A DNA stretch of 64,000 nucleotides. Source: Escherichia coli. GTDB lineage: Bacteria; Pseudomonadota; Gammaproteobacteria; Enterobacterales; Enterobacteriaceae. Positions 54,445-63,422 of this stretch are shown one piece after another. The stretch lies in assembly GCF_001677475.2 (NCBI RefSeq), contig NZ_CP015229.1, one strand, 5' to 3'. The notes under the pieces are model-generated. The model did no database searches. It saw only the letters and a list, made by a program, of their open reading frames with translations, and had not been told where the DNA came from. How positions within the stretch are numbered: the stretch's first letter is position 1; each line of letters opens with the position of its first letter. A program made the translations under genes and the position numbers.

Positions 54445-54856
54445 CTTTTAAAAAAGGGCGGCAGAGCAGTCACGGAGTAAAACTGATACCGCCAAATGTC
54501 ACCAGAATATTGATAACAGAGGGCGTTGTAGCGGGGTTGTCACTTAAGCGTATGGTCAACCTGACAACCCGGTGTCCTCAACGGGGAAAGGCGTCCCTCC
54601 CACCCCCGCCATACTTACCGCCGCGCCATTTCGCGGGTCGCCACAACCGGAAGCGCACGGTCGAATTAAATTTAACGACACCGTGCAGTGAGACGAACTT
54701 CGCCGTGCGCTTTCGTGTTGTGTGCCTGCTTTTAACCACGTCAGGCGAGGTGGTTTCCGTCATTCCCCAACGACAGGAAATCTGTATAATCTGGGTATCC
54801 CCAACGATCCAAGGAAATCATATGACAGAGCAAAGAGCACAAGCAGGTGATGGTGT

Positions 54857-56241: not shown

Positions 56242-56718
56242 TTAAGTTCCTGTCTTGGTGATGTTCTGGCTTTTCCGTTTTGATTCTTGATTTTTCAGAT
56301 AGTTAGCTACCTTCATTTCCATTGCGGCAATGTAGGCGCGAACGTCATGATCAACCCAACTAGGCTCCGTAGCATTTCCAGATAAGAGGAAAGCCACAAT
56401 TGCTCTTTTTTCATCAGAGGCGGCTTGATAAAGGCTGTTTATGTCTAAAAGTTCACTTTTTGTATCTGAAGTGGATGGGGTTGGTATGGGGTATTCGTTA
56501 AGCCCCCAATGCTCTGGACCAACCACATCAGAAAAGAAACGCCATAGTTCTGGAAGTTTGTCTTTACTTATCGAACCTTTCTTAATCCAGTCATGGATTG
56601 ATGGTGGTTGGACTTTGAAATGACGTGCGATTTCCGCCTTTGATTTGACGGCTCCTGATGCAATTTTTTTGTTAATGGCCTGCTCTATCGCTCGGCCTAA
56701 GTCTTTACCACTAAGCAT
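56242..56718 (-). CDS. prophage repressor, RacR-like (HTH, no S24 peptidase domain)
   Basis: 158 aa with N-terminal HTH (KAEIARHFKVQPPSIHDWIKKG); divergent from Cro-like gene; same length and position as Rac RacR. Confidence 0.75.
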   Translation of the reverse strand: MLSGKDLGRAIEQAINKKIASGAVKSKAEIARHFKVQPPSIHDWIKKGSISKDKLPELWRFFSDVVGPEHWGLNEYPIPTPSTSDTKSELLDINSLYQAASDEKRAIVAFLLSGNATEPSWVDHDVRAYIAAMEMKVANYLKNQESKRKSQNITKTGT

Positions 56719-56771: not shown

Positions 56772-56792
56772 TTAGGCATAGCCTATTGACAA
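56772..56792. promoter_or_regulatory. operator-like site in divergent repressor/cro promoter region
   Basis: ttaggcatagcctattgacaa plus neighbouring ttaggca and attaggctaagcctaat near-palindromes between repressor and cro-like genes. Confidence 0.6.
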
Positions 56793-56842
56793 TCACATTA
56801 GGCTAAGCCTAATATTATTGTGTGTTTTTTGGAGTTCATTCG

Positions 56843-59010: not shown

Positions 59011-59315
59011 AAAAGTGGGTGCGTGCCGAGATACTGATTCTACGGCAGTGTGCGGGAACAATGACGGTGGAATGCATCGGGATGCTTATTGGTCGTAGTG
59101 AGGCTGCGGTCAGAACGAAAGCGCGGGAACTGGGTATTAGTATGATGTTACGGGGTGATTATCACCAGTCAGCAAAATATCCGCAGAGTGATATTGAGCT
59201 GGCGCGACAGCTGCATCAACGTGGCGTGTCCAGGAGAGAAATCGCCAGAAAATTTGGAATGCCGCTGCGCACAGTGAATAACTACGTTTATTTCGACAGG
59301 AGGGTGTCTGCGTGA
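59007..59315 (+). CDS. hypothetical protein with two HTH-like segments
   Basis: 102 aa; RSEAAVRTKARELGIS and VSRREIARKFGMPLRTV helix-turn-helix-like motifs. Confidence 0.5.
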   Translation: MKKWVRAEILILRQCAGTMTVECIGMLIGRSEAAVRTKARELGISMMLRGDYHQSAKYPQSDIELARQLHQRGVSRREIARKFGMPLRTVNNYVYFDRRVSA

Positions 59316-59557
59316 AAATCCTGTATCAGGATTACGGCCCGGTGGGACAGGTGGTTATCAGCAGTACTGTAATGGAGTTCCGGAAGCATAACCGTGTGGT
59401 GGATGCAGTGCTGTTAGCCTGTCCGGGGATATCGGCGAGCCGTGCAGGTGTGTTTTTTATGAAGACGAAGTTATATGGCAGTACAGCGTGGATAAAGAAG
59501 GCGTACCGGGTAGCGTTGCAGGAGGTAAACAGTGAGCGAATCGGCAACCATTCTTGA
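59312..59557 (+). CDS. hypothetical protein
   Basis: 81-aa ORF overlapping neighbours at both ends. Confidence 0.4.
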   Translation: MKILYQDYGPVGQVVISSTVMEFRKHNRVVDAVLLACPGISASRAGVFFMKTKLYGSTAWIKKAYRVALQEVNSERIGNHS

Positions 59558-60020
59558 TATGTCCTGTGGCAGTCGTATGTTCTGGTTCGATAAGAATGAC
59601 GACCGGGCGATATTTAGCGATATCAGAAAAGAAGAGCACACATTATGTGATGGACGACGCCTGATAATTAGCCCTGACCTGATAGCAGATTTTCGTGCAT
59701 TACCATTTGCAGACGCATCGTTTCCGGTTGTTGTATTCGACCCTCCGCATCTTGAGCGTGTTGGTGATAACGCCTGGATGGGAAAGAAATATGGACGGCT
59801 GAATAAAGATACCTGGCGTGATGATTTGCGGCAGGGATTTAAAGAAGCCTTTCGTGTGTTGTGGCCACACGGTGTTCTGATTTTTAAATGGAATGAAACG
59901 CAAATACCTGTCCGCCAGATATTGGCACTAACCGACGCGAAACCAATCATCAGCCAGCGCACCGGTAAGAACGATAAAACACATTGGATTATTTTTGTGA
60001 AGGAAGCGACCAGTGGGTAA
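59532..60020 (+). CDS. orphan DNA methyltransferase (amino-MTase, DPPH motif)
   Basis: 162 aa from GTG with GGAGG SD; motif I-like DMSCGSRMFW and motif IV VVVFDPPH; no adjacent restriction endonuclease gene. Confidence 0.7.
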   Translation: MSESATILDMSCGSRMFWFDKNDDRAIFSDIRKEEHTLCDGRRLIISPDLIADFRALPFADASFPVVVFDPPHLERVGDNAWMGKKYGRLNKDTWRDDLRQGFKEAFRVLWPHGVLIFKWNETQIPVRQILALTDAKPIISQRTGKNDKTHWIIFVKEATSG

Positions 60021-60267
60021 ATCAAAATGCCAGGTTTATGGCAACAAGATAGAACCGTGTACGGCACTGGCAAACTCCCTTGAGCATGATGCTGAATACA
60101 CGACGCGAAAAGGTCTGCTGATATACGAAATCTGGAATGAGAGTTTAACTCGCGGCCCTGATTTGGTGATGTTGCGATCCGGTGAATTTTCTAAATCACC
60201 AGTTCGGGTTTCATTTTTCCCGTTCTGCGGTGAAAGTCTGAAAACGTGGGAGAACAGAAATGAATGA
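60013..60267 (+). CDS. hypothetical small Cys-containing protein
   Basis: 84-aa ORF from GTG, overlapping MTase stop. Confidence 0.45.
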   Translation: MGKSKCQVYGNKIEPCTALANSLEHDAEYTTRKGLLIYEIWNESLTRGPDLVMLRSGEFSKSPVRVSFFPFCGESLKTWENRNE

Positions 60268-60571
60268 AATTAGAGAAATACCAGTAGAACGTGATGAATA
60301 TGGCTGCTGGACACATCCAGAATATGAAAAATTCTGTGACGGTCGGGAATATATTTCAACGGAAGAGTTTAACGCCTGGATGAAGGAAAATAATCTTCAG
60401 TGGACTATTTGCAGCATGGATGAAGATTATTTAAATCCGGTTGCAGATGACCCCGATATTTCCGCCTGGGAACCGGAACGACCAGAGGGCGAAGGCTGGT
60501 TTATTAGCTCCATTCATGATACTGAAGATGGTCCGGTTTGTGTCTGGTTGCGAAACAAGGTGATGGCATAG
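60260..60571 (+). CDS. hypothetical protein
   Basis: 103-aa acidic ORF, overlapping starts/stops in array. Confidence 0.5.
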   Translation: MNEIREIPVERDEYGCWTHPEYEKFCDGREYISTEEFNAWMKENNLQWTICSMDEDYLNPVADDPDISAWEPERPEGEGWFISSIHDTEDGPVCVWLRNKVMA

Positions 60572-60874
60572 ATGAGAATAGAAAAAGCGAAAGCACAGCT
60601 CAGGATAATGCTTGCTGGTCCGGCTGCGAGTTATATGACACATTCACCAGCCATAAAGAAGGTTCTTGATGAACTGGAAGCCAAAGACAAGCGCATTGCA
60701 GAACTGGAGGCGAGGGAAATCCAGTTACCTGCTGGCTTCGACCTTCGATATGGACACCCGATAAATGCTGATGAGCGACATGTGATGATACCTAAAGAAA
60801 ATGGCAACTGGATTTATCGGACTGACTTAGAGCACGTACTACGTGTTGCAGGGATTCGAATTAAAGGAGACTAA
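60572..60874 (+). CDS. hypothetical protein
   Basis: 100-aa ORF starting at stop of previous gene. Confidence 0.5.
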   Translation: MRIEKAKAQLRIMLAGPAASYMTHSPAIKKVLDELEAKDKRIAELEAREIQLPAGFDLRYGHPINADERHVMIPKENGNWIYRTDLEHVLRVAGIRIKGD

Positions 60875-60875
60875 C

Positions 60876-61232
60876 GTGGAAATAAAACCAGAAGATGAGT
60901 TAAGTAATATTGTTTTATTTCCGGTAAAAGAGGATGACCCACGTAATCAGGTTAATTTTCTTTATGAGCCATCGGAAAGACCATATTGTCATCACGCCTC
61001 TGTCCGGGTTGACGAAAAAGAGCGTCAGGTCCGCTGTAAAATCTGCGGTGCAGTTGTGGAGCTATTTGACTGGATGCTCTCTGTGGCGAAAAGAGAAACC
61101 AGACTGGCAGATGATGTAAGGATCTTGCGCCAGGAGGAACGGGAAAGGCGGAGAAATATAGAAAAGCTAATTCAGATTGAGCGTAACGTGAAAGCGCGGA
61201 TACGCAGGGTGACAAAATCCAGAACTGAATAA
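60876..61232 (+). CDS. hypothetical zinc-ribbon protein
   Basis: 118 aa from GTG with AAGGAG SD; CHH…CKICG motif; basic C-terminus. Confidence 0.5.
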   Translation: MEIKPEDELSNIVLFPVKEDDPRNQVNFLYEPSERPYCHHASVRVDEKERQVRCKICGAVVELFDWMLSVAKRETRLADDVRILRQEERERRRNIEKLIQIERNVKARIRRVTKSRTE

Positions 61233-62576: not shown

Positions 62577-62820
62577 ATTCATTCCGTATGGGAATTCCCA
62601 TATCGGGCAAAAACGGTTTGCTGTAAAGCGAGAGTTAAGTAGAATTGCTGCGGGTGCTTGAGGCTATCTGCCTCGGGCATGCCGCCGTAAGGCAGACAGA
62701 GAAAAGCCCCAGTTAACATTACGCGTCCTGCAAGACGCTTAACATTAATCTGAGGCCATATCTATGACTTGCACACGTAGGTTAGCCTCTTACGTGCCGA
62801 AAGGCAAGGAGAAGCAGGCT

Positions 62821-62976
62821 ATGAAGCAGCAAAAGGCGATGTTAATCGCCCTGATCGTCATCTGTTTAACCGTTATAGTGACGGCACTGGTAACGAGGAA
62901 AGACCTCTGCGAGGTACGAATCCGAACCGGCCAGACGGAGGTCGCTGTCTTCACAGCTTACGAACCTGAGGAGTAA
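62821..62976 (+). CDS. hok: Hok/Gef-family type I toxin (HokD/RelF-like)
   Basis: 51 aa MKQQKAMLIALIVICLTVIVTALVTRKDLCEVRIRTGQTEVAVFTAYEPEE; AAGGAG SD; in-frame upstream ATG at 62764 gives a 70-aa mok-like extension. Confidence 0.85.
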   Translation: MKQQKAMLIALIVICLTVIVTALVTRKDLCEVRIRTGQTEVAVFTAYEPEE

Positions 62977-63014: not shown

Positions 63015-63422
63015 GTGTCAGGCTTCCTCAACGCACCCGCACTTAACCCGCTTCGGCGGGTTTTGTTTTTTCTGTGCATTCTGGTTTACAATTCGCACGC
63101 CAGCCTGAACAACTGGCACCTGCTGCGCCAGCAGAGACAACCGATGGCGCACGATACCAAATTACACAATTCTGATGATTCTGCCGTTTTTGCCAGCAGG
63201 CACGGGCTGCGTTCTCACGCATTCAAATATGACTGGTATCAGCACGATCCCTGCACTGAAGAACAGGCCGAATGGCTGATTCATAACTACCGCAGACGTG
63301 GGTATGAGTTTAAGAAAGCCCTCAGTCTCGATTATCGTCACTGGATAATCTACGTCAGACTCCCTTATTCCGAACGCCCGCCGCGTCCATCCCGCACATT
63401 CCAGCAACGGATCTGGAGGTAA
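63015..63422 (+). CDS. hypothetical protein (Rem-position), start uncertain
   Basis: ORF after hok; likely start at ATG 63144 (92 aa). Confidence 0.45.
   Translation: MSGFLNAPALNPLRRVLFFLCILVYNSHASLNNWHLLRQQRQPMAHDTKLHNSDDSAVFASRHGLRSHAFKYDWYQHDPCTEEQAEWLIHNYRRRGYEFKKALSLDYRHWIIYVRLPYSERPPRPSRTFQQRIWR

Follow-up and report, generated by a model that had tools for sequence, protein, structure and literature searches.

Gene content of the locus

The window, a 64,000-nucleotide stretch of Escherichia coli DNA, carries a Rac-type lambdoid prophage inserted beside potC/potD. The prophage contains genes for an integrase, an excisionase, a RecE-like exonuclease, DicB, a RacR-type repressor and YdaS- and YdaT-like proteins, together with DicF, an O-like replication initiator, DUF977, an HTH protein, a methyltransferase, small genes and a hok/sok locus. 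Between 56.2 and 62.4 kb, the neighbours of the methyltransferase gene comprise the racR-type repressor, cro/cII-like regulators, the O-like initiator, DUF977, the HTH protein and small proteins. The features framing the gene are:

56242–56718, minus strand: racR-type repressor gene, divergent from the early operon; racR in RefSeq
56786–56815, plus strand: P_R-like promoter, TTGACA-18-TAATAT, a consensus match only (10/12), preceding the cro/ydaS-like gene
59312–59557, plus strand: upstream gene, 81 aa, phrog_1001, overlapping the methyltransferase start by 26 nt
59520–59525, plus strand: Shine-Dalgarno sequence AGGAGG, 6 nt 5' of the methyltransferase GTG, read from the sequence
59532–60020, plus strand: methyltransferase CDS, 489 nt, 162 aa, GTG start, TAA stop (ORF list and RefSeq, WP_000004205.1)
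60013–60267, plus strand: downstream gene, 84 aa, phrog_4030, its GTG overlapping the methyltransferase stop (GTGGGTAA)
63045–63062, plus strand: first convincing intrinsic terminator downstream (terminator prediction)

The original prediction placed a 162-aa ORF at 59532–60020, and the ORF list returns exactly this frame, with its GTG start behind AGGAGG and a RefSeq CDS of the same boundaries. The RefSeq entry, from E. coli 08-00022, bears the product name "class I SAM-dependent methyltransferase", and the nucleotide sequence of the gene is 100% identical to the copy in that strain. The ORF gives a full-length match to phrog_954 (E=3.6e-86); ~4,500 protein clusters match it at E≤1e-3, as do 1,934 representatives at 50% identity. 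Of the complete E. coli genomes, 5,426 in number, 874 (~16%) carry the gene. It is therefore a genuine gene, far above what is expected of a chance ORF.

The complementary strand harbours an ORF of 200 aa (59471–60073, minus strand), which spans the whole methyltransferase gene, exceeds it in length and can mislead gene callers favouring the longest ORF. It has no family match and no match in PHROG. An antisense frame that stays open for 150 codons or more is kept in 46 of 57 related loci at ≥75% protein identity, and in only 3 of 23 loci at 60–75%. The antisense ORF is probably a passive by-product of shared ancestry and of the near absence of tyrosine codons, the methyltransferase having a single Tyr.

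Since the P_R-like promoter faces away from racR and the first terminator on the plus strand lies at 63045, the methyltransferase gene belongs to the early rightward operon, whose start is presumed to be the promoter at 56786–56815. The segment 56242–57575, where the racR-type repressor gene is divergent from the ydaS- and ydaT-like genes (RefSeq "toxin YdaT family protein"), corresponds to the Rac immunity and toxicity module, which would control the operon. By analogy with other prophage orphan methyltransferases, published as repressed in the lysogen (PMC8597746, PMC5778455), the enzyme is probably silent under RacR in the lysogen, its synthesis awaiting induction or infection and accompanying that of the replication proteins.

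Several further elements were identified in the prophage. A hok/sok-type toxin–antitoxin locus occupies 62652–62976 on the plus strand (Rfam sok at 62652–62826, 110.6 bits; Mok/Hok-like ORF at 62764–62976, phrog_251) and is followed by the strong terminator at 63045–63062. The early-left region, which in the matching prophage of RefSeq carries dicB and ydfB, holds the DicF antisense sRNA (54456–54507, minus strand; Rfam RF00039, 77 bits). A 129-aa protein encoded at 60843–61232 (plus strand, phrog_1621) displays a C-x-H-H ... C-x-x-C pattern and a weak, sub-cutoff match to the TFIIB zinc ribbon (E=6.6e-4).

Immediately downstream of the methyltransferase, the DNA at 60013–60571 (plus strand), in which two small ORFs lie (phrog_4030 and phrog_1372), is 92.7–95.3% identical to Rac-SA53, mEp460 and an Stx2k phage, and part of it shares ~82% identity with P7, SJ46 and JL22, which are P1-like phage-plasmids. 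The methyltransferase is missing from all six elements. A mosaic junction thus lies at the 3' end of the gene, as the DNA beyond it is common to phages devoid of the methyltransferase. The phrog_4030 ORF was considered as an obligate or Trm112-like partner and rejected, given its occurrence without the methyltransferase in Rac-SA53, mEp460 and P7/SJ46; the methyltransferase likewise occurs elsewhere without this ORF.

Fold and conserved motifs

An AlphaFold model built on a 58-sequence alignment (pLDDT 94.3, pTM 0.89) predicts a reduced class I Rossmann methyltransferase fold with the seven-stranded beta-sheet. The possibility of a non-methyltransferase fold, raised alongside the original prediction, gave way to the class I fold in both the model and the Foldseek search. 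In the model, residues 1–80 contain no helices, and helices A–C are consequently missing; the resulting helix-poor face is suggestive of dimerisation or of a partner protein. A beta-hairpin takes the place of helix B; its tip (around residue 40) is the sole indel hotspot across the family, and the hairpin is a candidate substrate-contact element. The chain stops 6 residues past strand beta-7, so that a target-recognition domain is absent, leaving a catalytic core of ~155 aa. Conservation is uniform along the chain, with no hypervariable segment. Some homologs carry N- or C-terminal extensions, which are heterogeneous and contain no informative Pfam domain; the C-terminal extensions of the 248-aa relatives are not family-wide. 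A conserved N-terminal domain, suggested by extensions of 60–80 aa and by the longer PHROG profile, was rejected, as the extensions are mutually unrelated and match no Pfam domain.

The elements of the catalytic core are located as follows, all on the plus strand:

59550–59573: motif I, residues 7–14, ILDMSCGS; end of beta-1 and glycine loop, with D9 invariant and L8, C12 and G13 nearly so
59607–59621: motif II, residues 26–30, AIFSD; beta-2 ending in invariant D30, the expected SAM-ribose ligand
59631–59669: beta-hairpin, residues 34–46, in place of helix B (model and alignment)
59688–59693: motif III, D53-F54, expected contact of SAM adenine
59727–59750: motif IV, residues 66–73, VVVFDPPH; beta-4 and catalytic DPPH
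59883–59891: F118-K119-W120, end of beta-5; K119 and W120 invariant

Glycine loop, acidic residue of beta-2 and motif III, the components of a SAM-binding site, are all present. Relatives of 40–60% identity share D9, D30, R32, P71, P72, E105, R108, K119 and W120 without exception, and G13, D53, D70 and H73 nearly so. Across the family, C12, G13 and D53 are conserved at 90% or more, and the position of F54 is aromatic in 93% of members. Sequence databases place the protein only loosely: Pfam Methyltransf_11 scores 20.2, below its cutoff of 21.2, NCBIfam has no match near cutoff, and a PDB sequence search returned no match. Among the relatives, 56 of 58 match Pfam methyltransferase models at a loose threshold of E≤1 (best 3.7e-10). 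Taken with the predicted fold, the protein is a class I SAM-dependent methyltransferase, and very probably an active one.

The canonical motif IV of amino-methyltransferases reads (D/N/S)-P-P-(Y/F/W), and histidine, itself aromatic, falls outside this definition. Codons 59727–59750 spell out V-V-V-F-D-P-P-H, precisely the motif of the original prediction. Its description as unusual is right with regard to the non-canonical histidine, and in need of qualification insofar as it implies a peculiarity of this gene: DPPH is kept in 140 of 147 diverse relatives, while DPPY, DPPF and DPPW are found in none, which makes the histidine a family signature rather than a local oddity. Position 73 is histidine in 98% of the family, next to conserved D70-P71-P72. 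By analogy with gamma-class enzymes, F118-K119-W120 may line the target pocket as its second aromatic wall. Motif IV is indicative of an enzyme that N-methylates planar amino groups, and methylation of an exocyclic amino nitrogen is a probable activity.

Copies of the gene are shortened or frameshifted in some phages, where the gene evidently decays: PhiR42_1 has a copy of 357 nt (locus L002, 5003–5359), and Salmonella phage Oslo one of 378 nt (locus L013, 2998–3375), which matches in two pieces. Such short copies would fit the idea that the gene at 59532–60020 is an inactive remnant with no present function. This is very improbable, however, as this copy is full length, its cofactor-binding and catalytic residues are intact and conserved at 45–65% identity over four phyla, and 854 of the 874 E. 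coli genomes bearing the gene retain at least 80% of it.

Comparison with known methyltransferases

A Type II restriction–modification system has a cognate endonuclease gene adjacent to that of the methyltransferase. No restriction endonuclease was found in the 25 kb annotated by RefSeq, among the ten neighbours scanned (56.2–62.4 kb), or in 16 phage contexts. The enzyme is thus an orphan, and the original prediction holds in this respect. PHROGs and PADLOC already label the family as DNA, Type II or orphan methyltransferases, names which are annotations only; the full-length profile matches in PADLOC are PDLC03288 MTase_II (E=8.9e-71) and PDLC03730 oMTase (E=1.2e-46). With regard to its restriction–modification content, PADLOC cites REBASE (PMC9252829, reference list). 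Elsewhere, annotations of family members range from "UbiE" and "TRM11 family" to "cytosine DNA methyltransferase". The GenBank note for Listeria A118 reads "methylates cytosine residues in DNA", and no experiment behind it was found in the literature search. Searches with the DPPH motif, A118 ORF50 and member accessions retrieved no paper on the family, and no experimental characterisation, published assay, solved structure or curated Pfam/NCBIfam model of it.

Foldseek matched Bud23, M.TaqI, TrmM, HemK, N6AMT1/KMT9 and NRMT1 at similar scores, and also the phosphatidylethanolamine N-methyltransferase 8ys9 and the carbamoyl N-methyltransferase 9l4q. A BFVD fold search returned one family member, the rest being distant matches, and profile searches were significant only for generic methyltransferases. 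The fold search says little about the substrate, separating neither DNA, RNA nor protein methyltransferases. Sequence profiles of the family most resemble Methyltransf_11/25. A member of that group, PH0226 (PDB 1ve3), differs in having a full helix complement and no DPP-aromatic motif at the aligned position.

These similarities would accommodate an enzyme that N-methylates a protein side-chain amide or amine (Gln/Lys, as with HemK/PrmC and N6AMT1/KMT9) or a small molecule, since HemK, N6AMT1/KMT9 and NRMT1 match at the level of M.TaqI, 8ys9 and 9l4q are among the fold matches, and Methyltransf_11/25 is rich in small-molecule enzymes. We regard such a substrate as quite improbable. An invariant D-P-P + aromatic motif, as found here, is rare in Methyltransf_11-type small-molecule enzymes, and the genomic context is DNA-centred with no biosynthetic neighbourhood.

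Among DNA methyltransferases, the order of motifs agrees with that of the gamma class (N6-adenine), as in M.TaqI: motifs I, II, III and IV are linear, with (D/N)PP-aromatic after beta-4 and an aromatic/basic element after beta-5. M.TaqI is a Foldseek match at E=7.7e-5, with a TM-score of only 0.48. The M.TaqI enzyme has a large C-terminal recognition domain and an NPPY motif; the chains matched in the PDB comprise ~380–385 residues, whereas the prophage enzyme has DPPH, lacks helices A–C and ends without the target-recognition domain that follows the core in the gamma class. Motif I (residues 7–14) precedes motif IV (70–73), and there is no permuted order as in the beta class; the beta-class model PF01555 is grazed by 20 of 58 relatives (best E=0.0012). 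The Dam-family (alpha-class) model does not match the protein.

RNA m2G methyltransferases, namely Trm11/Trm-G10, TrmN/Trm14 and RsmC/RsmD, are cellular housekeeping enzymes with THUMP or other RNA-binding or duplicated domains. The enzyme described here differs from them in being phage-borne and free of any extra domain. Profiles of the Trm11/RsmD/UPF0020 group in the PDB reach only E=0.39–0.72 with no THUMP-like domain, and the Pfam models UPF0020 and Cons_hypoth95 match 5 and 3 of 58 members, respectively, all at E>0.04.

The closest functional analogue is PamA of the Staphylococcus aureus phage mosaic-phi11, for which DNA adenine methylation is demonstrated (bioRxiv 10.1101/2024.04.17.589803). 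Both enzymes are tiny (PamA, 141 aa), phage-encoded orphans with no recognition domain, located just after replication genes, and motif IV lies at similar positions (64–67 in PamA, 70–73 here). In contrast to PamA ("LDPC...NPPY"), which has no N-terminal motif I, the prophage enzyme possesses the glycine loop and has DPPH in place of NPPY. Homology between the two was rejected (BLASTP E=0.18; hhalign probability 0.5%), the similarity being limited to motif IV.

M.EcoGII and the Hia5/Hin1523/Nma1821 group provide the functional model that we favour. They are orphan adenine DNA methyltransferases of prophages or Mu-like phages; M.EcoGII, a beta-class enzyme with a putative recognition domain, is unexpressed in its own lysogen (PMC5778455), and Hia5, at 281 aa, has a recognition region that is divergent and a canonical DPPY motif around residue 194 (PMC3299994). 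M.EcoGII and the Hia5 group, which is of the Dam-like alpha class, display little or no sequence specificity and confer broad protection against restriction (PMC5778455, PMC3299994). Kinship of our enzyme to Hia5 and M.EcoGII was rejected, the published classes and the motif order being different.

Distribution and genomic neighbourhoods

The family is present at full length and 45–65% identity in 253 sequenced phages, temperate phages of four phyla. Its members include Listeria A118, Lactobacillus A2 and streptococcal, enterococcal and staphylococcal prophages in Firmicutes, Gordonia and Corynebacterium phages in Actinobacteria, and Porphyromonas and Bacteroides phages in Bacteroidota, in addition to phages of Proteobacteria. 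At least 594 loci carry the family in IMG/VR. A leading-region context on conjugative plasmids received no support: of 61 plasmid records, 46 are non-mobilisable and only 2 conjugative.

In all 16 annotated phage contexts, the gene is surrounded by early genes for replication, recombination or integration. The neighbourhood is otherwise very mosaic, with 261 neighbour clusters from 76 IMG/VR loci. The recurrent immediate neighbours in a set of 80 IMG/VR loci are a dATP/dGTP pyrophosphohydrolase, a dNMP phosphatase, a helicase loader and, directly 3' of the gene in 11 loci, a C5 cytosine DNA methylase of ~700 aa. This methylase is homologous to gp21 of Pectobacterium phage ZF40 and gp66 of Gordonia phage Nymphadora, and the adjacency therefore recurs across phyla. 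In this recurrent pair of methyltransferases, the C5-type member (PF00145, phrog_116; 525–763 aa) is encoded, for example, in loci L071 (6495–8786), L008 (3465–5618; ZF40 gp21) and L005 (2418–3995; Nymphadora gp66), and the gene order is reversed in the Gordonia phage. A PamA-type Dam methyltransferase occurs within 6 kb in 6 of the 80 loci. The Bacteroides LoVEphage has three annotated methyltransferase genes in 3 kb; judging by sequence motifs, the two besides the family member resemble an enzyme of the PamA type and a fragment of the beta class. The most compelling case for a role in DNA modification and anti-restriction comes from membership of such "methyltransferase islands", and we consider DNA a fairly likely substrate.

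Two further associations were not sustained. A Lar-like restriction-alleviation gene overlaps the methyltransferase stop in one Pseudomonas phage, and is absent from the 80 IMG/VR loci. The RNA-repair gene RtcB, noticed in two distant phages, was likewise found in none of the 80 loci.

The same neighbourhoods bear on an RNA substrate. An amino-methyltransferase acting on a conserved tRNA or rRNA site (m2G or m6A) could modify host translation or guard tRNA from anticodon nucleases. The lack of RtcB from the surveyed loci speaks against this, as do the recurrent neighbours, which are DNA methyltransferases and dNTP/dNMP enzymes. The protein is devoid of RNA-binding modules such as THUMP or PUA, the N-terminal extensions of its homologs are heterogeneous, and its similarity to RNA methyltransferase families is sub-significant throughout. 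The family also seems to be confined to phages, prophages and phage-like plasmids. We therefore hold an RNA substrate to be unlikely. A broader version invokes a takeover or counter-defence factor that N-methylates a universal host molecule other than DNA, such as guanine-N2 or adenine-N6 of tRNA or rRNA, or Gln or Lys of a translation factor. Such a target would explain how a core of 155 aa that lacks a recognition domain retains 45–65% identity across four phyla. We view the proposal as unlikely.

Proposed function

Orphan methyltransferases are a main route by which temperate phages escape restriction, and can also reprogram host gene expression. On balance, we lean towards a phage DNA amino-methyltransferase, probably of adenine-N6 type and low specificity, that is expressed on induction to evade restriction. 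In such an enzyme, D9 with the glycine loop, D30 and D53-F54 would hold SAM. D70-P-P-H73 and F118-K119-W120 would together shape a pocket admitting a planar, amino-bearing group, whose exocyclic nitrogen would be methylated directly. The likeliest substrate would be replicating phage DNA. Adenine-N6 would be favoured over cytosine-N4, because the motif begins with D and not S; motif statistics associate the D-type motif with adenine or guanine more than with cytosine. The missing recognition domain and uniform conservation suggest a fixed specificity that is low or absent, and it is probably very short at most and the same family-wide. The benefit would lie in shielding progeny DNA from host restriction systems.

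The original interpretation is upheld in part. The orphan phage methyltransferase stands, while the DNA substrate and the anti-restriction role are suggested by context, above all by the methyltransferase islands. Anti-restriction as the main role is modestly favoured. Alternatively, a DNA methyltransferase might regulate replication, packaging, the lysis–lysogeny decision or host expression. Dam acts in P1 packaging, and PamA, which affects virulence genes of S. aureus, provides a regulatory precedent (bioRxiv 10.1101/2024.04.17.589803). The gene directly follows replication or recombination genes in many phages, and the family coexists with other methyltransferases within the same phage, which implies more than redundant protection. 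Yet host control during lysogeny is unlikely if expression is limited to the lytic early operon, and the gene behaves as a mobile cassette: in E. coli it occupies two or more different early-region contexts (beside DUF977 or beside Ea22-like genes), and in some phages it is shortened. This agrees more with an accessory gene than with a core regulator. A primarily regulatory role is hence improbable in our estimate.

The methyltransferase is an ordinary prophage accessory gene of a very common, catalogued family with an unusually minimal fold. The family is carried by phages of pathogens, including Listeria, S. pyogenes, S. pneumoniae, Enterococcus, Acinetobacter and P. gingivalis, and thousands of genes would gain a settled annotation once its substrate is assigned. 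If non-specific, the enzyme would be the smallest known sequence-non-specific DNA adenine methyltransferase and a small tool enzyme for applications such as footprinting; if its target is not DNA, it would represent a new phage–host interaction.
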